64,000 nt of DNA from positions 3,980-67,979 of IMG/VR virus record IMGVR_UViG_3300020050_010026. One strand, given 5' to 3'. Source of the stretch: a virus. Under the pieces are notes generated by a model. It had not been told where the DNA came from. It made no database searches and saw nothing but the letters and a program-made list of their open reading frames with translations. Below are positions 3,101 to 61,956 of this stretch, in pieces; position 1 is the first letter of the stretch, and every line of letters starts with the position of its first letter. A program made the translations under genes and the position numbers.

Positions 3101-6100
3101 TACGAAGATAAGACTTTAACAAAATCTGAAGAATTACAATTATCATTATGGTTAATAGATGCTTTTAAAAGAGTAACCAGATTGTATAATGAAAAAAATA
3201 CAAAAGAAGAAACCGAAACTTTAAATCAGGCTTATAGTAATTTAGAAATAATAGAATCTTTATTATATAATTTAAAAATAAATAAAAATGAAACAGTCCA
3301 AAAAGAAAGAAGTGATTCAAAAAATGAAATTACTATCTCTTCCGAAAAAACTAAAACAAAAACTTCAGAAGTAAATAATCAAGAACTTGAACAATTAAAA
3401 AAAGAAAAAGAAGATTTACTACAACAGATAAAAGAAGAAAGTCTTGTATTTAAGATGCCTGAAATAACTGAAGAAGAAAAAATAGATTCTGTACTACAAA
3501 CTAGCGAAGTTGCTGAAGTAGAAAAAGGAGTTCAAAATCTTATAAATGAAAGTTTAGATGATGAAGGTAATCCAACAATAAGCCAAGAAGAATTCAATGC
3601 TTATATGGAACAACAAGATATTCCAGAAGAAGTAAAAGATGCTGTTGTACTTTTAAATGAAGAACAACTTAATACATTACCTACACAAGAAGTAATAGAT
3701 AATAAAGTAGAACTTATTAAAACTGAACTTGAAGGTGTTGATGAAAAAGATATAACTGAAGACGATTCTATTCATAAAGAAGAAGATGAAGATGTAGCTA
3801 ATTCATTTACAAATAGTAAAGAAGTTATTGAACCTGAACCTGAAAATAATTCATTAGGTCATAAAATTCAGAATAAAATTACAGAAGCTTTAGAGAAAAT
3901 TTATAAAATATTTGAAAAAACTCCAAGAGATAAAAGAGATGATAAAGTTACTTTTAGTTTAGGTGATTTCATTAATAACGATACAGTTAAAGATATTTGG
4001 GATAATTTTTTAAAAACTGGTAAAATTGATAAATCAGGTATTAAATGGTTAGAAGAATATTTACCAATAAAAGTTACCTTAACTAACGGAAAAGTAGAAG
4101 GTTCATCATTTTTAAAATCTAAAAAAGGCTCTCCTAATTTTGAAAGTTATGAATTACCTTTAAGAAAAGCGATTGTAAAAGCTTTAATTGAAAATAAAGG
4201 TGATTTTACTAAATTTGAAGGTTCGGTCCAAGGGCAAGGTAAAGGTAAGTTAAATTTAGATAATGCGAGTACACAAAATAATGTATTAGATATTAGTGTA
4301 CTTAAAGGAATGAAAAAACCTGAATTATTAAAATATCTTAAAGAAAATACTTATATTGTAAATCACGATAAACAATTAGTTCATGCTGAAACAGGACAAA
4401 AATCTATAGAAAGTTTTTTTAATGTTATAAAATCTTTTCATAGTGGAGATGTATTTTTAGTATTTACTAGACCTAATGGACAGAAAGTTCCTATTAAATT
4501 AAATAATAAAAGAATTACTCAAGAAAAGGCTGAAGCAACTGTTAAATTATTAGCTTTACTTTCTAATACAATTAAAACAAATCAATCAGATATTGTTTTA
4601 AATGATAAAGATTTCAAAAACTTTTTAAAAGATAATGTTGGAGAATTTTACTATAATCAATTAGAATTTGAAATAAATTTTTCTAAAAAAAATAATAATA
4701 AAACAAGATTAGAAGAAATAATTAATTATATTACCTATATTCAAAATAATAATAATATTAGTAAATTATTTATAGACAATAATGGAGATTTAACAATAGG
4801 TAGATTAATTCAAAAAGTTAATGAAGATTTACAAGTTGAAAATAATGATTATGATAAAAACCTAACAGCGATTGGTTTTAGAGGTTTTGAAGGTCAAAAT
4901 ATAGAATCTTTAATTAGTAATGAATTAGATGAAAACGCACAAGCTAGATTTAATCATTTGGTTAGATTTATTATGTACAAAAAAACTAATATTATTGCTG
5001 ATAAATTTACTGATGATAATTATATAGAACATGTTTTTGGTATTGGTGAAAATAAACAAAGTCTAGTTAGCACTAATGTTTCAGTAGATAAAGATATATT
5101 TGGAGGTTATAGTGATATATTTCTTAACAATGAAGTTACTACTTTAGAAGATGGTAAAGCTAAAGCTAAAGAATTAAAAGAAATTGAAAACACTGAAATA
5201 CCTTTAGCTAAAGAAGTTGTTTATAATGAACCTACATCTACTACTCAATCTGAAATAGAAGTTCAAAAAGCTGATATACTACAAAAAAAGAAAGAAAGGT
5301 TAGCAAACGTTAAACCTATGTATCATCATACAAATGTTGATACTAAAGACTTTAACTTTAATAATTTTCAAAGAGGGAATAAACAAGTTAGTCAATTTGG
5401 TGATGGTTTAAACGCATCATCAAATACCACTTCATTTCTAGTTAGTAGATATGGTAAACCAATACAAGGTGAAGTCAATGATGCTGATTTTGTTAAAATA
5501 GATGCTTCAAAAACTGAAAAAGAAGTATATGAAGAATTAAAAAAACAAGGTTATATATTTTCTGAGGTTCATGATACTAATGATGTTTTATCTGAAGTAC
5601 CTGGAGCAGCTATGGAGTTATTTACAGATTTTCAAAAGTCTAATCCAAATGTAAAAGGTGTTCGAGTAAGTAATCATATTATAGGTAATACTAAAGTTGC
5701 ACCATTTTATGTAATATATGATGCTAAATCATTTTATGGTCAAGGAGCTTTAAGTAAAAAAATTGAACAAGAAAGTAATGCAGAATTAGCTGCTTTAGAA
5801 AGTAAACCTAAAATTAATTTAGAAGATAAAAAAGCTGATATAGAAAGAAGAAGACAAGAAGAATTAAATGAAGAAAGTTATAGAATACCTATAGCAAAAG
5901 AAAGCAAAACATTTGTTGATGAAAATGGTACTAATTTAAAAATAACCATAACAACTTTTAAAAACGGTTCAAAAGTTTCACAAACAACTAATTTGGATAA
6001 TGGAGTTGTAACACCTAAGGAGTCTTATCCAAAAGAATTAGATAATGCTAAAATATATAACGCTGAGTCAGGAACTGAAATTAAGTTAGATGATACTAGA

Positions 6101-6777: not shown

Positions 6778-9700
6778 ATGGGATGTACAAAAATTAGTAA
6801 AACTAATAAAGGTGAATCTAATTTATTTAATACTATATATAATGGAGTAGCTAATGGTAATGAACAATTAGCTACTCACTATTATAATTGGTTTGAAAGT
6901 AAAAGATTTGATGAATTATTTGGTTTTAATTATATTAATGCTTATAAAAAAGGTATTCAAAATGAAAGACTTGATGAAAATGGAGAACCTAAATTATTAT
7001 ATGATAAGGAAACAAGTAAATATTATTTCTTAGATAAAAATAATTTAAAATCTTATTTTCCATCATCTTCTAAGGGATTATCTAAAACATGGTCTGGTCA
7101 ACAAATTAAAAATGTAACATCAAGACTTGTTTCTTCATATTTTAAAAGATATTCTAATATCGATTTTAACAATATTGATTTTTCAACATTAACTAATTTA
7201 CCTAATTTAGATAAATTTATTAAACATGAAATTGATAAAAAAATTGCAAAGTTAAACGAAATTGTTGATAATGGTACTGAAGATGAAGCTGATGTTGCTT
7301 TAGCTAAATTAGGTTACTTAGAAGATGCTTCTAAAAACTTAAACGAACTTAAAGAATTAGTTGTTAAAAAGTTTAAAGATATTGGTGCTGATTATAGTGA
7401 AGATGAAGATAATGATGATTTTAGTGAAGATGTAAAAGAAACAAGTAGGGAAGGTGTTGTTGGTAAAGCTTCAATAGAACGTTCTAGTAGATCTAAAGTT
7501 ACAGCTAATGTTAAATTAAGATTAAGTTTATTAGATGATTTAGAAAATAAAGATGAACTTTGGGATGATTTTACTTTACTTGAATTTGATAAAGTTTATA
7601 AAAAACTTCAAGAGTTATTATCTAATAAAATTCCTTTAGAAGGAGAATTTTTATATGATAATTTTGTTAAAATAATAAATGAAAATGTTAAATATTTTCC
7701 TTATTTGAAACAACTAAATCAAATGTTAGCCGATAATAAAGATGAGAATTTTCCATATGAATTTACTCAAGCTTTTTATAAAGCTAAAAATACATTTGTA
7801 AATGAGGAATATAAAAAAAATGAAAAAGGTTATACTCAAGAAACAAGAGATTTATCAAATAGGACAGATAAAAAAGTAATTATTAAAGATAAACTTATTC
7901 AAGGATTTACTAATAAATTTATTGTAAAAGACTCAAATGGTAATTTAATTCTTTTTGACCATACTAAACAAGTACTGATAGATAGTATAAAAAGTCTAAA
8001 AGAAATGTTTAACCGTTCTGCAACATTATCTAATAAAGATAAAGTAGATGTAAAAAAAATAGAAGATTTTAAAACTTTTACTTTAAATACATTAAAGAAA
8101 CTAGGTTTAAATATTTCTGATAAAGGATTTAATCATTATATTGGTTATCCTATAGATATAAAATTAGAAAATTTAACTGAAGAAGAAAGAATTAAAATAT
8201 TTAATAATATTTATAATTTAGTTGCTAAATTAAGTAATTATGCTTTTAAAGAAGTAACTACTGATGTAAATAAAATATTTAATTCTACTAATGAATTTAA
8301 TAAATTAATTGATTCTGAAGTATTTGTTTCTGATAATGATATGTCGGAAGATATGGTTCGAATTGGTGGTGAAAAAAGATATGTGTTTAGTAATCCTTCA
8401 CATCTTCATATGGAATTAGAAAGATGGAAACAAGATCCTTCTATTTTATTAAAAGAATATTATAATGATCCTTATATGGAAGGATCCAGACTTGTTACTG
8501 AATGGTTTGAGTTAGATACAAATCAAGACAAATCTTTTGAAGAACTTGTAGAAATAGGTAGAAAAAATCTTAAAAATGTAAAACTTGGTATATTTGGTGA
8601 AATGACATTAGGTGGAGTTAAGAATAAATTTGAAAAAACAACAGATTTAGAATTTAAAGATTATTTTACAAACAATATAAATTCAGTATTAAACAATCAA
8701 GGTTTTGTAAGAACAATTACTCAAGCAGATAAATCTACAGAATTTGTCTTTAAAACACTTGTTAATAGAATTAAAGGTTATTTAGGATATAATACAACTT
8801 TAAATGAATTTGAAATAACTGACGAAGTTAAAAAAACTTATTTTAATTATTATTTATCTGAATTAAAAAGTGCATTACGAGCAGATCAAGTTGTTAACGA
8901 AGCAATTAAAAATAATGACGATACTAAATTAACTCCTCATTATCATTATCAGTATGAAGTTAAAAATGATAAAGGTGAAACAATTATAAATCAAAATCGT
9001 TTTGATAAATCTGGAAACGACTTTAAATCTCAATATTTTGATAAGCTAAATCAATATACAGAACAAGAATTAAGACTTTTAAAAGCAGATAAATTACCAA
9101 AATCTAAAATAAAATCTAAATTAGAAGAAGAAATTGTAAATATTGTATATAATAAAGACGGTTCTTTAAAAATAAAAGATTTAAGTACATTCACTTTAAA
9201 TGATTTAGAATTAGAAAGTAAATTTGGAGAATATCTTCAACAAATGATTACTTCTGAGGCTAGAGAAACACTTAAAGAAATGAAAAATCTTGGTATTATA
9301 GAAGTTAAAAATGGAAAATATTCAAATAAACTTTTAGATACTAATTTAGTAGAAGAAAATACAAGTGGTACTGGTGAAATTGGTATGAGTAATGCAATAA
9401 ATAAAATTGCAATAAATTACATGATTAATGGTATTTCTAACAGTATAGAATTTACCAAATTATTTACAGGGAATATTGCTTACTATAAAAATTCTGTGGA
9501 TTTTAAGAAAAGAGTACCTGCTACTCAATTAGAAGGAATCCCTCTGATACTAAAAAAAGGTGAAGAAGCTTTTAATATTGCTACAATTGAAGCAGTAATA
9601 CAAGATAGTCCATTTTTAGAAGCTTTAAAGAAAGATAATGATGAAAATGGTGTAGATGCTCACACAATTAAAATGTTGTCAGATATTAATAGTACAGATG

Positions 9701-40388: not shown

Positions 40389-40491
40389 AAGTTAAGACAG
40401 GATTCGAACCTGTAAGATATTGACCGTATCAAGCTCTTAATATAGTTTATCATTCTATAGAACTTTGTGTTTACCATTCCACCACTTAACT
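40389..40491 (-). tRNA. tRNA-like gene, atypical (103 nt): perfect 7-bp acceptor and canonical T-arm, long extra hairpin, non-canonical anticodon region
   Basis: Minus-strand read AGTTAAG…CAGG-TTCGAAT-CCTG-T-CTTAACT. Acceptor 7/7 bp, T-loop TTCGAAT, 3-bp D-stem GTG/CAC with a GG-containing D-loop. A 5-bp stem TATAG/CTATA has a 9-nt loop. A about 25-nt extra arm forms a 9-bp hairpin (type-II-like). No encoded CCA. Confidence 0.4.
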
Positions 40492-42133: not shown

Positions 42134-42383
42134 TTATTTTCTAATACTTTTTATAAAATTACACACTTTATGTAATTTTTCACCATCATTTGGTAAAGGT
42201 AGTTCTTTAAAATAATTTACTGCACCATCAAAATATAATGGACAAATAGTTCCACCACCGCCTTCTCGTCCTCCTAAGATTTCAAGGAATCTAATATTAT
42301 CTTTAAAAAATGTAACATCATAACCTAAATACTCTGGTATTTCATGTCTAAAAGGTGAAAACAATCCAACAACAACATTGGCC
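42134..42383 (-). CDS. DnaB/gp4-like replicative helicase, exon C (3' exon)
   Basis: ANVVVGLFSPFRHE…EILGGREGGGGTICPLYFDG aligns to DnaB …DADLIMFIYRDE…IIIGKQRNGPIGTV. The ORF caller's 'M' is a TTG coinciding with the intron omega-G, so it is not a real start. Confidence 0.6.
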
Positions 42384-43366
42384 AATATGTTATCTCATAG
42401 GCTCTTTATCCTATGATTCTATATGTTACCATATAGTTCAGACTATATCTTCAGTACCGTGTACTGCTGGGATTTCGTGGATATATTATATTCTGTAATA
42501 AATGTGAGAGCCTCACACTTTTGATTGTTTTACTCGACACATACTTTTCGTATTGGTTTATATCAGCCAAACGCCTGCATCAGGTTCTACTCTCACATTA
42601 TTACAGTTTCAATATCTAGTCGTTCGACCTTCTATAATCATTTAAATTATAGCTTGGTACGGGATTGTCCTATTAGGATATTCCCCGTTTAACCCAGTTA
42701 CGTGACACATTTATTTTGGAAGTTTATATAACATTGTAGGATGTATATGTTCAATAACTAATTCTTTAAATGTATTATAAAATTTAGCAGGAAGATAAAT
42801 TTTATTATCTGACATTATATTAAAACGAATTTTAAATTTATCAAATAAAAAGTCTATAAAATCTTCAAGTTCTATTTTATTAAAACAATTTGTAGAAATC
42901 ATTATTGAATGAGATGTTTTATAACCATCATCCATAAACATTACAGCTAAAGATAATTCATTAAAATAGGAATATATCCCTTTAGATATAACCTTTTTTT
43001 TATCTTTATAAAACATGTGATACAACTGTAATAATTCTTTTTTATTACAAGTTTCTAAAGTAGCAGACGTATAAAACTTACCATTTCTTTTATCTGGTGT
43101 TTTTCTTGTCCATATTTTAAATTTTGGAGATAATGATTGAATCATTTCTTTTTTCCATTCACAATATTCTGCTTGTTTTGGACCATGATCACATTTAAAT
43201 CTTGGGTTTATACATGCTTTATCAATTCTTAAATGACCATCTCCTAAGACGCATCCTATTAAAAATTGAATTTCTTTTTTAGGTAAATTCATATTTTATA
43301 TATTTTAAAATACAAAGATACAAAAAATATTCCACATTTCCTAATGTTTTTTAACTTTTTTTGCCT
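42384..43366 (-). mobile_element. Group I self-splicing intron (983 nt) carrying a LAGLIDADG homing-endonuclease ORF
   Basis: Minus-strand core elements: P4/P5-like ACGGGGAAT…AATCCCG; P7 5' GGTCGAACGACTAG; P7 3' GAAGATATAGTCTGAAC (the conserved 'AAGAUAUAGUC' S element). Exon 1 ends in U (…CAACGTGAT|). Omega-G at 42384. Joining restores …ETQRD-ANVVVGLF…, co-linear with DnaB. Confidence 0.75.
42711..43292 (-). CDS. LAGLIDADG homing endonuclease (double-motif, intron-encoded)
   Basis: Two LAGLIDADG motifs: LIGCVLGDGHL and LAVMFMDDGYK. Located inside the group I intron. Confidence 0.8.
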   Translation of the reverse strand: MNLPKKEIQFLIGCVLGDGHLRIDKACINPRFKCDHGPKQAEYCEWKKEMIQSLSPKFKIWTRKTPDKRNGKFYTSATLETCNKKELLQLYHMFYKDKKKVISKGIYSYFNELSLAVMFMDDGYKTSHSIMISTNCFNKIELEDFIDFLFDKFKIRFNIMSDNKIYLPAKFYNTFKELVIEHIHPTMLYKLPK

Positions 43367-44056
43367 ATCACGTTGGGTTTCTTTGTTTCCAGCTAGACCA
43401 TCTAATGTTGGTTTTAATTTGTTATATTTTTTATTTTCAATTGATTCTTGAGCAGCAGCTTGTTGTTGTATAACGACAGGTATGTATTTGAATCTATTAC
43501 GAAGTTTAATTAAATAATCTGAACTTAATTTTCCTATTGATTCATGTAATGTCATAGGTATTCCCGTATCATAATTTTTTTCAGGACTAATAAGTCCAAT
43601 ATGATCTATCATTACAATTACATATTCCTCAGGATTATTAGGTTCATAATAATCTTCAACTTCTATTGCTTTACCTTCTATAGTAATAGTTCTATAATGA
43701 ACTTTACCATTAGCTAAAGCATATTTTCGTACTAAATTGTAAATGCCGTATGGATTTCTCACATCATCGACAAATTCAACAATTTCTTCAATCTTATTAA
43801 AATATTCTTTATATTTTTCTATTACTTCTAAAACTTCTTGAGGTAAAATATTATCTGCTTTTGTACTTTTTAATTGAGTTGGACTCAATCTAATACCTTC
43901 TTTAATATATAAAATATTAGAGAATGCTGACAACATCTTTTCTTCTTTACTAATTTCTAATGTAAAATAGAATATTTTTAATTTAATATCTAAGTTATTA
44001 TCAATTACTTGTTGAATTGTATTGTATAAAAATAAGTAATCTGCAATTTGTGTTTT
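43367..44056 (-). CDS. DnaB/gp4-like replicative helicase, exon B (middle exon)
   Basis: The frame is open from a TAA at 44060-62. KTQIADYLF…IFYFTLEISKEEKMLSAF aligns to DnaB GKT-TFAMNL…LIFSLEMPSEQIMMRSL (H1a). YVIVMIDHIGLI is Walker B/H2. SIGKLSSDYLIKLRNRFKYIPVVIQQQAAAQ aligns to EISRSLKALAKELNVPVVALSQLNR (H4). The ATG at 43936 is an internal Met. Confidence 0.65.
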
Positions 44057-44071
44057 CGTTTAATAAAATTA

Positions 44072-44527
44072 TCATATTAAACATTGTTCTTCTGAAAAGC
44101 CCATTAATCCCATTAAATCATAATAAGAATATTTTCCTTTCCCTTTATTATTTAGTTTTGATTCACTATTATTATAATTATATAAATATTTATATTTATT
44201 ACTTGAATTCGACATATATATGATATTCATAAATACCCATTTATTTATATCAGTACAATATAATAATTTTAATTTTTTATTGTATCGTAATAGTTTTTCA
44301 ATTTGTTTAGCTAAATGTTTTTCTGAACAATTTGGATAATATGTTTTAATTACAGTGTGTAAATCTTCAAAACTTCTATTTGCTTGAAAACACTGTGTTT
44401 CTGTTAAATTAATATCAAAGTAAGTTTTTTTAAATTTAAAATCTACTTTGTTCATTTGATAACATTTTTTTAAAAACGTAGTAACTCTTTCTCCCTTTTT
44501 TCTTTCTACATCTACGTATAATTTCAT
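44072..44527 (-). CDS. hypothetical protein, family 1 (paralog of 46034-46462); intron-associated
   Basis: Shares …TETQCFQANRSFEDLHTV…LLYCTDINKWVF…YSYYDLMGLMG with the paralog …TIEQCKSTANRSITDLHRI…LVWCTQINKPVL…YSLKDYEEIMKK. Confidence 0.45.
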   Translation of the reverse strand: MKLYVDVERKKGERVTTFLKKCYQMNKVDFKFKKTYFDINLTETQCFQANRSFEDLHTVIKTYYPNCSEKHLAKQIEKLLRYNKKLKLLYCTDINKWVFMNIIYMSNSSNKYKYLYNYNNSESKLNNKGKGKYSYYDLMGLMGFSEEQCLI

Positions 44528-44550
44528 TTTCTATAATTTAATAATTAAAT

Positions 44551-45156
44551 TTATTGTTGATTTATAATACCATACCATAATTTAATTTGATTACCGGAAT
44601 TTGGATTAAAAAACCATTCACTATTTGATGTTGATTCTTCATCTAAAATTGTATAATAATCTTCAAAATCTTCTTGAAAATTTGTTGAAAACATCCACAT
44701 TCCTTTAGAAGTTTCTCTATCTATCCAATAGTTTATAACTTTTAAAAATAATGCTTGTTTTAATTCAAGTAAATCATCTTCATCGGTATTTACAAATTCA
44801 TCATTTTCAATATGATTTATTAAGTTATTAAGACCTTCAAATCTAACAATTCCACAAGAAAACTCGTTATTAGAATTTCTAGTTAAATTTACAGTTGTTA
44901 CTTTATCAATATTATTGATATCTATATAACTTAATTGATTATTTTGATAAACTATTGAATTTATACAATCCAATTCGGTTCTTAATATAGGTGTTGGTAT
45001 TGTAGAAGGTTCATCTTCAAATAATGATGAATGAAATCTTACGTTTTTACCATTATCATTAATGATTCTAATATAATCATCTTCTTCTAATAACACTTCG
45101 TAGATTTTACCTTCTGTTAATTTATAGTTTTTAGCGTTTTTGCAAATTTTATTCAT
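44551..45156 (-). CDS. hypothetical protein (intron-internal ORF)
   Basis: 201-aa ORF immediately 3' of the internal group I core; no recognisable nuclease motif. Confidence 0.4.
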   Translation of the reverse strand: MNKICKNAKNYKLTEGKIYEVLLEEDDYIRIINDNGKNVRFHSSLFEDEPSTIPTPILRTELDCINSIVYQNNQLSYIDINNIDKVTTVNLTRNSNNEFSCGIVRFEGLNNLINHIENDEFVNTDEDDLLELKQALFLKVINYWIDRETSKGMWMFSTNFQEDFEDYYTILDEESTSNSEWFFNPNSGNQIKLWYGIINQQ

Positions 45157-45184
45157 TTAATTTCTAAATTTAATATTTATATTT

Positions 45185-45300
45185 ATAGTCTAGACTATCT
45201 CATCATCCCATAAGGATGCCGGACGCTGTGGACTGATCGTAATCTTCCTAGTCGTTACACCTTCATCAGTCTTCCCTGAAGCTTGGCACGGTATTATCTA
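45185..45300 (-). ncRNA. Group I intron catalytic-core-like element (P6-P7-P8-P7'-P9), homologous to the core of the LAGLIDADG intron
   Basis: Minus strand: CCGTGCCAAGCTTCAGGGAAGACTGATGAAGGTGTAACGACTAGGAAGATT…GATGAGATAGTCTAGACTAT. Parallels TACCAAGCT…GAAGGTCGAACGACTAGATATT…GAAGATATAGTCTGAACTAT of intron 42384-43366. GC-rich island between two ORFs. Confidence 0.55.
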
Positions 45301-45987
45301 CTTAAAAACATGAAGTAAATATTTTTCAGCAGCTTTAAAATCTTTTGCTTTTAAAAAATTAAAAATAATTTTCTTTTCTTTTTTAAAATTTGAAGATGTT
45401 TTATAATCAAAAATATTATTATACAAACCATTCGTTTTCATATGATATTCTCCAAATATATTTTTAAAACTTTTTAAAGTTTTATATGGTTTATTAAGAT
45501 ATATTTTAGGACTATATCCAGAAGGATCGTAAAATCCATCCATACTTATATTATAATATGGTATTATTGTTTGTAAATTATTAAAATCATATTCTTTTGA
45601 ATTATAATAATGAGATAGTAAAAATGCATTTTGTATTTTTACACCTTCTTTATTCATAATTAAAGTATCTTCTAATATTTTTTTAATATTTTTATATCTA
45701 ACATATCTACAAATTCTAAAGAAAAAAATTTGTTGAGTTTCAAATTCACTTTCAAATTCAAAACTATTTTTTCTAACATTTGTTATTTTTGTTTTAAATC
45801 TAAATTTTTTAATAATTTTAATCAACAAAGATATATCGGTTTCATCATCTGAATAAAATAAATGTTTTAATCCTTCTTTATATCCATTACCACAAGACAT
45901 ATTTTGAATATAATAATTACAATTTAACATTTTTTCACCTCTTATTTTGTAAGTACCACTTTTTAATTTTCTTAAATATTTATTCAT
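45298..45987 (-). CDS. hypothetical protein (intron-internal ORF)
   Basis: 229-aa ORF whose stop abuts the group I core element. Confidence 0.4.
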   Translation of the reverse strand: MNKYLRKLKSGTYKIRGEKMLNCNYYIQNMSCGNGYKEGLKHLFYSDDETDISLLIKIIKKFRFKTKITNVRKNSFEFESEFETQQIFFFRICRYVRYKNIKKILEDTLIMNKEGVKIQNAFLLSHYYNSKEYDFNNLQTIIPYYNISMDGFYDPSGYSPKIYLNKPYKTLKSFKNIFGEYHMKTNGLYNNIFDYKTSSNFKKEKKIIFNFLKAKDFKAAEKYLLHVFK

Positions 45988-46033
45988 TTTTTAAATAGAT
46001 TTTCACCGTTTTCATCCGGTTTAATAATAATTA

Positions 46034-46462
46034 TCATAATTTTTTCATAATTTCTTCATAATCTTTTAAGGAATAACCATCTACTCCTTTTTTAGTAAAA
46101 TAATTATCTTTACTATACTTACTTATCCATTCAGAGGTTTTATTATTTACAAATTTTAAAACTGGTTTATTTATTTGAGTACACCATACCAATATAATTG
46201 ATTTGTCCTCATCCATAAATTGTTTTACAATTTTAATAACTTGTTCTAAACTTGTTTTTGGAAATCTAGATTGTACTATTCTATGTAAATCTGTAATACT
46301 TCTATTAGCTGTTGATTTACATTGTTCAATAGTACATTCTGGATCTGAATAAGAAATGTAAGCTTTACCTCTTAAAAAATACCTAATAAATTGTTTTCTT
46401 GTACTAGTTAAAGGTATGCTATTTAAAGAAACATAAATTAATTCTTGATTGTTTTGATTCAT
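46034..46462 (-). CDS. hypothetical protein, family 1 (paralog of 44072-44527); intron-associated
   Basis: See the paralog alignment under 44072-44527. Confidence 0.45.
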   Translation of the reverse strand: MNQNNQELIYVSLNSIPLTSTRKQFIRYFLRGKAYISYSDPECTIEQCKSTANRSITDLHRIVQSRFPKTSLEQVIKIVKQFMDEDKSIILVWCTQINKPVLKFVNNKTSEWISKYSKDNYFTKKGVDGYSLKDYEEIMKKL

Positions 46463-46537
46463 GTTTTTATATTTTTTTTTATTTTGTAAAATTATTATTT
46501 TTACATCTAAATATTACTATTTAGCTGGGCAAAATTT

Positions 46538-46715
46538 TACCCACTTTACTATTTGCAGTCACATTATAATATTTTCCTTGTTCTATACCTGGATTTTCTT
46601 CTTCAAATCTAGGTAATCCCCAAGGAATACAATTTATTTTACCTGAAAGAATTCTTTCACGTCGCTCTACTAAAGTGTTAAACACTCTACTGTATAAACT
46701 ATTTTGTTCTGTCAT
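46538..46715 (-). CDS. DnaB/gp4-like replicative helicase, exon A (5' exon; ends inside Walker A)
   Basis: MTEQNSLYSRVFNTLVERRERILSGKINCIPWGLPRFEEENPGIEQGKYYNVTANSKVG(K) corresponds to DnaB …TG(F)xxLD…GLxPGDLIIVAARPSMGK and T7 gp4 …VIMVTSGSGMGKS. The ORF runs 4 codons past the GK into the intervening sequence before a stop. Confidence 0.55.
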
Positions 46716-59913: not shown

Positions 59914-60577
59914 AATGTTGTTAGTTTTAGTTTGTTATTGATATAATAAAAGAAATAGGTATTGTTTTTTCAAACTTTTTATCATCAAAAATAACATTTA
60001 CAGTATTAGTTTTATTGCAAAATGATATTTTATCTATTTTTGATATTATACCAGAATTATTCCATTCATCTTTATATTTTAATATCATAATTAGTTAAGT
60101 TTTAAACAGTTATTTAAATCAATAGTATTCCAAATATGTACATAAGTAAATTCACCATTTGGAAACCATAGTCTAAGATATTGAGGATTGCTCATAATTA
60201 AAATATTAAAAATAATGTTTCAATTATTACAATACAAATTAAAAATCTAATAGACATGTTAGCATTTTGTAATTGTATTTCTAATGGTAATTTTTTGTAT
60301 TCTGAATTTTTCATAATAGTTAATTGTTAGTTAATAATTTTTTAATGTTCAATAATAAAAAATAAGGGTCTAGATGTAAAAGACGGATTCAATATCTCTA
60401 ACATTTACGAAGACCCTTATTTTCGTTCTATTTAAGTGAGTGGCGTACTGCTCACAAATTTCTATTATATCATATAGACGGAGTGACTACGGGTTAATTT
60501 GTAAACAAATCGTTCCGACTGATGACCGTAACTGATAATATAATTTCATTCTCTGCCATTTTAGAGATTAAATATAG

Positions 60578-60650
60578 GGTGATAGGTGAGGGTCGAACTC
60601 ACATTTTTCTGAACCACAATCAGAGGCTTTACCCTTAAGCTACAATCACC
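60578..60650 (-). tRNA. tRNA-His (anticodon GTG) with 5' G-1
   Basis: Minus strand: g-GTGATTG-TA-GCTT-AAGGGTA-AAGC-C-TCTGA-TTGTGGT-TCAGA-AAAAT-GTGAG-TTCGACC-CTCAC-CTATCAC-C. All four stems pair. Anticodon loop is U-U-GUG-G-U. Extra 5' G opposite the C73 discriminator (His identity). Confidence 0.8.
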
Positions 60651-60680
60651 ATGTAAAAATATAAAAGAATTATATTTTTG

Positions 60681-60752
60681 TATTTCCAGAGAGAATTGAA
60701 CTCTCGTTTTTAGGTTGAAAACCTAATGTCCTAACCACTAGACGATGGGAAC
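60681..60752 (-). tRNA. tRNA-Glu (anticodon TTC)
   Basis: Minus strand: GTTCCCA-TC-GTCT-AGTGGTTAGG-ACAT-TTAGG-TTTTCAA-CCTAA-AAAC-GAGAG-TTCAATT-CTCTC-TGGAAAT-A. Resembles the bacterial tRNA-Glu D-arm (TCGTCTAGTGGTTAGGAC). One acceptor mismatch. Confidence 0.7.
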
Positions 60753-60811
60753 GGTTTCTGTATGCTTTACGTAAAGCTATGGTAGTACAGACACTATTAT
60801 TCCATTATTCT

Positions 60812-60938
60812 GTGGAGGTGCCGGCATCGAAACCGGGTCCATAAACAATTTCAATACAATAATATATTACAGCTTAGTTATAGATTTACGTGTTTAACTA
60901 CACATAGGTCAACTGATTAATCAGAATGACTCCACCAC
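60812..60938 (-). other. tRNA-like / hairpin-rich element (about 125 nt) of uncertain nature
   Basis: 3' part CCGG-TTTCGAT-GCCGG-CACCTCC-A resembles a T-arm plus acceptor. The 5' part GGAGTC…CTGATTAATCAG… forms a long imperfect palindrome. No canonical cloverleaf found. Confidence 0.25.
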
Positions 60939-61956
60939 TTCATTTAATCTAATGAAGAAATCTTAAAACAACTTAAAATTAAGCAGCAATTAATTCTTGT
61001 TTCCAAGAAAAATCACCACATATCACATCATTATTTAAAATGTTGTGAACTACTTCCATATTTGCTCTAACTTGAGCGTTTGTATTCTTGTCATTTATTA
61101 ATTCACCTTAGTTTACAGTTATCTCTCTGGCTGATTATTATATTTACTACTATCTATGTCAAATCCTGTCACCCCCTTAAAATAATCTCATTTTGATAGA
61201 ATGTGATTAGTATAACTATTTTCAATATCTTTATATAAATGATGTCACGAGAAACGTGCTTCTCTTACCCTATAGCGTACTAGGAGCATTTATAAAGGTA
61301 TTAAATGTTTAACCTATTTGAGAGTTTTATCATTGCAACTCACAAGTGTTTTCTTTTCTTCAGAAACCAATAGCACCCATTTAACATTGGGTACACCATG
61401 TTTTTATAAAATCACTTGTCCAAATTCTAGTGGAATGGTTACTATGTTGACGTACTTACAACACATGAACATCTTTACAATAAACACAACTGCTAGTACA
61501 GTTTATAATTTGGTGTGCGTACCTAATTCTCCACCTTCATTATTATTTATCTTCAAGCAAGTGATTATATTAAAAACATTGAAAAATACTAGGATTACTC
61601 CTTGGGTTTGCAATGGGTCGAACCCATACTACACACCTCAATCTTCTGTCAATTCAGAAGTAGTATCTTTTTATAAATTATACACCCTATGCGTGCATCA
61701 CATCTTTTTAGCACTTAATGTAGGTAAAATCTTATTATACATTATTCTTATGATTTATAAAATTCAATGTTTAACTTTTAATTTAATTTTGTTTATTACA
61801 ATCTTTACAATTTAAAAATTCTTTTTCATTTCCATGAATGATTTTATTAGTATTACAAAACCATTTCTTTTCATACGGAATAAATATTTCTTTAAAATCT
61901 TTATATTTATACAAACATACAAAAAACAATATCACGCAACTAAAAGGAACAAAACA

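Follow-up and report, generated by a model that had tools for sequence, protein, structure and literature searches.

The window analysed here is a stretch of 64,000 nucleotides (nt) of viral DNA, positions 3,980 to 67,979 of the IMG/VR record IMGVR_UViG_3300020050_010026, and our subject is the gene of a DnaB-type replicative helicase that it carries in three separate pieces at 46715-42134. The window belongs to a crAss-like phage, nearest at the DNA level to Cellulophaga phage phi14:2 (Crassvirales, Steigviridae). All features given below lie on the minus strand. Exon A (46539..46715) has 59 codons, from ATG to the GGT of the Walker A glycine at its 3' end; exon B (43367..44056) has 230 codons, from AAA ACA to CGT GAT, and encodes the K-T of Walker A and motifs H1a, H2 and H3; exon C (42134..42382) has 82 codons plus the stop codon. 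Exons A and B are separated by intron 1, 2482 nt with four open reading frames (ORFs), whose boundaries (44057..46538) are set by colinearity; exons B and C are separated by intron 2 (42383..43366, 984 nt), which holds a homing endonuclease gene. We consider it very likely, judging from the sequence, that the pieces are one helicase gene whose two group I introns would remove themselves from the RNA, leaving a continuous mRNA of 371 codons. The gene stands in a replication module, between a replisome-organiser-like gene (47303-46719) and a Sak4-like gene of the AAA_24 type (42097-41333).

That three minus-strand pieces reconstitute one co-linear DnaB-type helicase had been proposed in a sequence-only reading of this DNA, and the alignments bear this out. 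Joined, exons A, B and C give a protein of 371 amino acids (aa) which lacks no residue compared to the intact homologues of related crAss-like phages; it can be aligned over its full length with the unbroken helicase of the crAss-like phage cr108_1, at 50% identity, and with the phi14:2 product, once joined, at 57%. Both junctions run uninterrupted in these alignments (ANSKVG|KTQIAD and TQRD|ANVVVGLF), the junction peptides of the joined product being ..NSKVGKTQIADY.. and ..ETQRDANVVVG... Our comparison set consists of 80 related loci from a scan of viral contigs (designated by L numbers); about 55 of them have an unbroken helicase gene with the same junction residues, as found by tblastn of the three pieces. 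The match to Pfam DnaB_C (PF03796) is below the cut-off (23.6 bits for 27) and that to NCBIfam phage_DnaB reaches 16 bits; a profile built on the helicase family finds solved C-terminal domains of DnaB (4a1f, E = 3.8e-6, also 4zc0 and 2r6a), with which H1, H1a, H2, H3 and H4 align in order. The product would be a DnaB-type replicative helicase with the RecA-like domain only.

A few details of the first description have to be moved. The segment IPVVIQQQAAAQ, previously taken for motif H4, aligns with the DnaB motif H3 (QLNR), and H4 (EQDAD; TQRD|AN in the window) is the insertion point of intron 2, the motif names being those of the DnaB family. The pieces had been correctly delimited except by one base: exon A ends at 46539 (GGT) and not at 46538, and exon C starts at 42382 and not at 42383, which is the terminal G of the intron. 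A break of Walker A between G-K and T, announced in the title of the sequence-only reading, does not hold either: the junction compatible with a group I intron is G|KT (GGU|...G|AAA), where the body of the same reading had placed it. The ambiguity arises because intron 1 and exon B both begin with AAA.

All three exons are under purifying selection. The ratio of nonsynonymous to synonymous substitution rates (dN/dS) of the joined helicase is 0.13-0.24 among intron-bearing phages, dN is far below dS for exon A by itself compared with relatives, and all three keep their reading frame open and in phase in relatives with 57-96% identity. The coding strand is free of terminator-like sites across the helicase locus, and the 64-kilobase (kb) window yielded no second helicase copy; a single precursor RNA of 4.6 kb would span the whole gene. 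Besides, the Walker A intron is present at the identical codon in phi14:2, a cultured and viable phage. These data speak against the idea of a dead or fragmented helicase whose pieces stay apart, the phage relying on its host or on another helicase. The idea can invoke RefSeq, where the two parts of the phi14:2 gene are listed separately (g024 and g029), and the scores of both window introns, which on their own sequence remain under the gathering score of Rfam. It deserves very little credit given the exons kept open under selection, a window devoid of any other helicase and, as described below, intron guides that follow synonymous changes of the exons, an observation left without explanation unless the RNA is spliced.

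The two halves could also remain separate polypeptides assembling non-covalently, or be joined by an intein or a split intein. DnaB P-loops are classic sites of intein insertion, and DnaB inteins resemble the present elements in that selfish elements target the same gene family and the same motif. They are, however, in-frame protein-splicing elements, whereas the intervals of the window have the features of RNA introns: every reading frame is interrupted by stop codons, and there are several independent ORFs and a non-coding RNA structure. No Hint or intein domain was found, and a fragment of 59 residues ending within the P-loop is unlikely to complement the remainder. The sequence already contradicts both solutions, which retain practically no chance. 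Two further candidates were discarded: excision at the DNA level (no recombinase gene, and a border repeat of only 4 nt, AAAA) and translational bypass, for which 2.5 kb is far too long.

Intron 1 splits the Walker A codons at GGU|AAA, and near its 5' end a nine-nucleotide element, UUUUGCCCA (46526..46534), pairs with both exons. Its GCCCA (46530-46526), rightly picked out as a guide candidate in the sequence-only reading, forms P1 with the UGGGU of exon A (46543-46539), a U.G pair marking the splice site; its UUUU (46534-46531), directly 5' of the guide, forms P10 with the AAAA with which exon B starts. The U.G is unchanged in 10/10 sequences, and the fourth pair (columns 9-24) is GC in eight and UA in two: relatives with the synonymous valine codon GUU have the guide GCCAA, those with GUG the guide GCCCA. 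P10 is adjusted likewise in phi14:2, where exon B starts with AAAUC and the guide element is GAUUU. The element UUUU-GCCCA would thereby specify both splice sites of intron 1, through P1 and P10, and both introns would excise via the standard two-step pathway initiated by guanosine. As had been anticipated, the 5' exons end in U and the intervening sequences in G (44057 and 42383 in the window).

The 5' half of intron 1 alternates stems and ORFs. After the guide comes the P2 hairpin (46507..46524, CUAAAUA-GUAA-UAUUUAG), whose loop is of the GNRA type; pairing is complete in its cells (100%), and three of its pairs change on both sides. P2.1 pairs AAUAAUAAUU (46490..46499) with AAUUAUUAUU (46032-46023) around ORF1 (46034..46462, 142 aa); five of its ten pairs are changed on both sides, L037 for instance having UAAACUAUUA/UAAUAGUUUA there. 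The 5' strands of P3 (CCGGAUG, two covarying pairs), P4 (ACGGU) and P5 (AUCUA) follow at 45996..46019. The loop of P5 holds ORF2 (45298..45987, 229 aa), the stop codon of which, UAG, lies inside the 3' strand of P5, and the flanks of ORF2 form a duplex of -20.6 kcal/mol whose stability is reached by 0/500 shuffles. One of the near-identical copies of intron 1, in L054, has an additional hairpin, CAUACGU-UAUUU-ACGUAUG, in the P1 loop (first 35 nt).

The 3' half of the core (45193..45300) brings together P5', P4', P6/P6a, P7 (GACUA, 45253-45249), P7.1, P3' (45225-45219), P8 (45218-45204) and P7' (UAGUC, 45197-45193); it shows covariation in P6, P6a, P7.1 and P8, and matches the S-element motif exactly. 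ORF3 (44551..45156, 201 aa) stands in the P9.1 loop, framed by the 5' strands of P9 (CUAUAA) and P9.1 (AUUAAAUUUA) at 45165..45188 and by their 3' strands at 44531..44553, i.e. UAAAUUUAAU for P9.1, which overlaps the stop codon of ORF3, and UUAUAG for P9. Duplexes drawn sequence by sequence show coordinated changes of these two stems in ten relatives, P9.1 changing in step in L037, L045, L055 and L042. ORF4 comes last (44072..44527, 151 aa): its first 10 nt (AUGAAAUUAU) are the 5' strand of P9.2, and the 3' strand of P9.2, AUAAUUUUAU (44072-44063), is followed by UAAAC and the terminal G, the whole ending the intron at 44057..44072. P9.2 is compensated in relatives (L005 AUAGUUUCAU, L006 AUGCAA/UUGCAU, L055 AUGAAGUU/AACUUCAU), and in those without an ORF4 gene the 3' splice site comes 7-8 nt after the 3' strand of P9.

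The proposed pairings were scored on ten copies aligned after deletion of their ORFs, for 64 pairs in 12 helices, the structure covering P1, P2, P2.1, P3-P6, P6a, P7, P7.1 and P8. Standard pairs occupy 93.6% of cells, against 31-45% when the partners are slid, and 24 pairs change on both sides, against 3-7; 0/500 shuffles reach the observed values. P4 and P7 are invariant in the aligned introns and thus uninformative in this respect. The AU-rich 3' stems resist alignment by MAFFT; P9, P9.1 and P9.2 come from duplex predictions registered by hand for each sequence and stand outside the formal pair count, the stems of this region being the least secure part of the model. Altogether the comparison of sequences supports the assignment of intron 1 as a group I intron with a conserved P3-P8 core and a P3/P7 pseudoknot. 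The core would assemble from three separated stretches once the ORF loops close, that of ORF1 by P2.1, that of ORF2 by P5, that of ORF3 by P9/P9.1 and that of ORF4 by P9.2. The presence of four ORFs in an A-to-B interval of 2.48 kb was already correctly noted; what is added here is that each lies in its own stem-closed loop and that none is a known endonuclease, and that the P1 loop of intron 2 houses a LAGLIDADG gene.

The Rfam model Intron_gpI (RF00028), suggested earlier as a check, has a gathering threshold of 50 bits, and neither the whole window nor the segment 41800-47000 gave any group I match with it. A local search at 45140-45320 returns Intron_gpI as the top match for the core of intron 1, with 25.5 bits (E = 6.3e-5). 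The check thus fails for the window introns themselves and succeeds for uninterrupted homologues, in L059 (70.2 bits, a homologue of intron 1 with a contiguous core, near-identical to the copy of L042/L043) and in L075 (51.7 bits, a relative of intron 2 described below). We attribute the low scores to the ORF insertions: Rfam misses intron 1 because its four ORFs break the ribozyme into pieces, and relatives in which the core is contiguous pass. In the shortest copy (L042/L043) a contiguous ribozyme occupies the first 280 nt and is followed by one ORF; the window has the same ribozyme blocks in the same order, but separated by ORFs.

Such a broken arrangement might suggest that the first interval is a twintron or a tandem of separately spliced elements, or a row of ordinary genes between two small introns, all the more since several relatives have two adjoining introns here, with a micro-exon of 9 nt between them, and since the ORF content is modular among relatives. 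The interval 46538-44057 nevertheless contains the S-element motif just once—each of the two introns has one exact copy of the P7 3' consensus motif, and the 64-kb window has no others—and a single set of P3-P8 strands, which pair across the ORFs. Rfam shows no second core, and no residue is lost between G59 and K60, hence no micro-exon is needed. We therefore rejected this composite arrangement, which we regard as very unlikely, and keep a single intron 1.

None of the four ORFs of intron 1 is a recognisable homing endonuclease. ORF1-ORF4 have no match in Pfam, NCBIfam or PADLOC, and none in PHROGs beyond weak ones to the N-terminal part of ORF3; family profiles of ORF1/4 and ORF3 found nothing in the PDB. 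ORF1 and ORF4, paralogous to each other (30% identity, E = 2e-10), give a weak winged-helix-like fold, in appearance of a nucleic-acid-binding type; ORF4 found no match in a viral structure library. Their family comprises 953 clusters at 50% identity in a profile search of 1.84 billion representatives and has no Pfam model. The distant members examined (L091-L094) are free-standing, tightly packed phage genes beside GATase, ThyX and Sak4-like genes; small proteins of this family are widespread in the replication and nucleotide-metabolism modules of phages. ORF3 gives a good model (confidence score pLDDT 87.7), SH3-like in its N-terminal domain and GNAT-like in the fold of its C-terminal part, no acetyl-CoA motif being seen in it; a single-protein search of viral contigs gave no relative of ORF3. 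The 47 homologues of ORF2 include none with a Pfam domain. In the contexts sampled, relatives of ORF2 and ORF3 were found only within this intron. Against close relatives dN/dS is 0.21-0.29 for ORF1, 0.40-0.48 for ORF3, 0.42-0.51 for ORF4 and 0.61-0.86 for ORF2, so that at least three of the four look like working genes.

We take the four ORFs of intron 1 to be accessory cargo and not mobility machinery. ORF1/4 was examined as the possible endonuclease of the intron, which is unlikely: it has no nuclease motif, the phi14:2 intron has no member of the family, and the distant members are free-standing. A different role would be that of a maturase, intron 1 being spliced but only with the help of a protein, for example one of the ORF1/4 family. 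The weak, AU-rich peripheral stems, a fold resembling a nucleic-acid-binding winged helix and the fact that the sole ORF of the minimal 761-nt intron belongs to this family speak for such a dependence; that phi14:2 does without any family member in its intron, and that distant members are ordinary free-standing phage genes, makes it rather unlikely, if worth keeping in mind. Splicing itself would be autocatalytic and efficient without protein help. Tentatively, and with more doubt than confidence, intron 1 could be seen as a "cargo" intron, the peripheral loops of the ribozyme being safe landing sites for accessory genes of the phage, or ORF1/4 as a new mobility or maturase protein. As P9.2 uses the start-codon region of ORF4 as one of its strands, ORF4 should be translated in competition with the folding of the intron, and P9.2 would limit this translation.

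Intron 2 lies in helicase motif H4 (QRD|AN). Its endonuclease gene (42711..43292) encodes 193 aa with two LAGLIDADG-type motifs, LIGCVLGDGHL and AVMFMDDGYK, and matches Pfam LAGLIDADG_2 (PF03161; 109.4 bits, E = 2.4e-31, cut-off 25) and PHROG 11023. The gene is placed in the P1 loop because the guide, GUCACGU (42706-42700), sits just after its stop codon and upstream of P3 (42697-42693). The ribozyme (42383..42710) continues with P4-P6, P7, P7.1—the stem of which holds about 100 nt of cargo—and P8, then P7' (42445-42441), P9, P9.1 and the terminal G at 42383. The guide pairs with exon ACGUGAU in P1, with a U.G at the splice site in 5/5 sequences and two covarying pairs. L075 has at the same codon an intron of 373 nt without ORF, whose exon ACGAGAU and guide GUCUCGU represent a compensated synonymous change. 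Five family members, stripped of ORFs and loop cargo, were scored for 57 proposed pairs: 98.6% of cells are standard pairs (31-41% with the partners slid) and 14 pairs change on both sides (0-2 slid). In a local search, Intron_gpI is the top Rfam match of the window core with 44.5 bits (E = 2.5e-10, 5'-truncated). By blastn, stretches of 50-100 nt in the 3' core match, at 77-89% identity, non-coding DNA of phages of Streptococcus thermophilus, Staphylococcus (Twort-like), Clostridium and Lactobacillus (JCL1032), lineages that carry group I introns. Intron 2 is missing from the phages nearest to that of the window, whose helicases are 90-96% identical to its own. Intron 2 is a further case of the known type, a phage intron with a single homing endonuclease, by which it would presumably spread.

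The family of intron 2 also occurs at helicase motif H1a (LE|MS) in L059, L062/L088 and L086, where GAGAU again closes the 5' exon and the guide, GUCUCUU, is adapted to the new target. Some relatives (L075 at 6865-6939; L086 at the H1a site) have in the P7.1 loop a tRNA-like sequence (Rfam tRNA 31.1 bits, threshold 29), to which the P7.1 cargo of the window is unrelated. In L070 a further insertion of 1.1 kb lies near motif H3. All four insertion sites of the helicase family fall in conserved motifs, H1, H1a, H3 and H4, and cores of intron type are shown at H1, H1a and H4.

At the level of sequence, both intervals of the window have what defines a group I intron—a P1 with U.G, a terminal G and a covarying core—as the sequence-only reading had supposed. 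Several points weigh against this account. Splicing is deduced from DNA and not from RNA. Both window introns score below the Rfam gathering threshold on their own sequence. The stems closing the ORFs are AU-rich and weak (P9.1, -9.0 kcal/mol, p ~0.03 against shuffles; P9.2, -7.5, p ~0.23), and these stems are supported by covariation in a small set of related sequences, those from P9 to P9.2 after registration by hand. An intron of 2.5 kb translated in four places may need a protein to fold. Finally, intron 1 has no recognisable endonuclease; its spread might involve the neighbouring GIY-YIG endonuclease that relatives possess, recombination during co-infection, or an unrecognised activity of ORF1/4.

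Among relatives, 21 loci (the window and phi14:2 included) are interrupted at Walker A, within 10 nt, by more than one type of intron. The interrupting sequence measures 761-3601 nt, the longest cases being two introns in tandem. The type of intron 1 stands alone, at GGU|AAA, in 11 of the 21; in 6 or 7 an additional GIY-YIG intron precedes the homologue of intron 1; L053 has only an intron with a GIY-YIG ORF, at GU|A. A third insertion point, GU|A GGA, 4 nt upstream, is used in L053, L056 and L075. The terminal G is found at the boundary derived from tblastn in 18/21, and after a shift of the junction by one base in L053, L056 and L075. The set of ORFs is reshuffled among relatives, from one to at least five in the interrupting sequence. 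On a neighbour-joining tree, helicases with and without intron are interleaved in a patchy manner, which implies repeated gain or loss of introns.

Group I introns stand back to back at Walker A in L003, L006, L037/L052, L058, L059 (1899-2422, for example) and L065. In these tandem loci the upstream GIY-YIG intron follows AGU (Ser56), then come a 9-nt micro-exon, AAAGUGGGU, and the homologue of intron 1. No GIY-YIG ORF is evident in the upstream insert of L065, and in L059 both cores are above the Rfam threshold (92.7 and 70.2 bits). A small family of intron-borne ORFs with the motif (D)NPVPS(L/I), represented by g027 of L001 and by ORFs of L056, L060, L061, L063, L065 and L075, recurs in a second subtype of Walker A intron, absent from the window. 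L011 and L069 have in-frame TGA codons in otherwise intact helicase genes, which suggests that this stop codon is reassigned in some relatives.

The cultured relative phi14:2 (L001, NC_021806, 12982-16707) has the Walker A intron, absent from its RefSeq annotation. There, exon A is the hypothetical protein g024 and exons B and C form a separate gene, g029, annotated as a 280-aa "DnaB replicative DNA helicase" with an internal ATG as its start, although for PolB the same record has had a joined gene since 2020. Spliced RNA of phi14:2 would join ...AAAGUGGGU to AAAUCACAA across g024/g029.

The window contains other RNA elements. A transfer-messenger RNA (tmRNA), uncommon in phages, lies at 60810-61176 (Rfam 56.7 bits, threshold 47), adjoined by genes of tRNA-His and tRNA-Glu; the tRNAs are at 60577-60649 and 60680-60752. 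A tRNA-like element of 103 nt (40389-40491) scores 42 bits with Rfam tRNA and is not called by ARAGORN; it has acceptor and T arms with about 35 extra nt in the variable region, and its fold energy is unremarkable (z = -0.55). L055 has a similar element at 8487-8584.

Group I introns are classic in phage genes of replication and nucleotide metabolism, such as those of T4 td, nrdB and nrdD (sunY), of the SPO1 DNA polymerase of Bacillus, and of Twort, S. thermophilus and Lactobacillus JCL1032 phages. From their sequence the window introns would share with them the P1-P9 self-splicing type and the location in conserved motifs of an essential replication gene; the extra P7.1-type hairpin between P7 and P3' recalls subgroup IA, and the single endonuclease gene of intron 2 is a further likeness. 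The classic introns have zero or one endonuclease ORF and roughly 0.25-1.4 kb, whereas intron 1 has 2.48 kb and four ORFs in four loops, none of them a recognisable endonuclease. In fungal mitochondria, group I introns usually carry one cargo ORF each. These organellar introns may carry cargo other than endonucleases (rps3, N-acetyltransferases) and may stand side by side in tandem (review PMC8393795). They resemble ours by an ordinary gene cargo, including one of acetyltransferase type, and by the tandems seen in L003, L006, L037 and L059, but they are not viral, and the comparison with intron 1 is by description only. Our literature search gave no phage example of non-endonuclease cargo or of tandem introns.

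Closer to the window, abundant group I introns with LAGLIDADG endonucleases are described in some crAss-like phages, in core genes such as those of the major capsid protein, PolB, primase and others (Yutin et al. 2021, PMC7886860). In that study the introns were detected via endonuclease domains and came for the most part from the gut groups Delta and Zeta; they share with the window introns the viral order, the location in core genes and the LAGLIDADG endonucleases. A text search of the article met no passage on a helicase intron, and phi14 is absent from the main text. Intron 1 would escape searches based on endonuclease domains. What is new in it is the combination of 2.5 kb, four ORFs in four separate loops, no known endonuclease and a cargo that varies among relatives.

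A first consequence concerns annotation: the helicase of this crAss-like group, phi14:2 included, is now annotated as a truncated protein and unrelated hypothetical genes, while the correct product needs the joining of exons, three in the window and two in phi14:2. Two or three introns within 10 nt of the Walker A codons moreover represent selfish elements competing for one conserved target. The usual picture of phage group I introns is one of small ribozymes that carry a single endonuclease gene or none; four expressed-looking genes in a single intron point to introns as gene-carrying platforms in packed phage genomes. If the cargo interpretation were true, the ribozyme of an essential early gene would host a winged-helix-like family, an SH3-plus-GNAT-like protein and a protein of 229 aa, and with the start codon of ORF4 locked in P9.2, an RNA molecule could either have ORF4 translated or have the intron fold or splice, but not both. 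Such an RNA would have to fold with ribosomes at work in its loops, which makes phi14:2, available in culture, a convenient test system.

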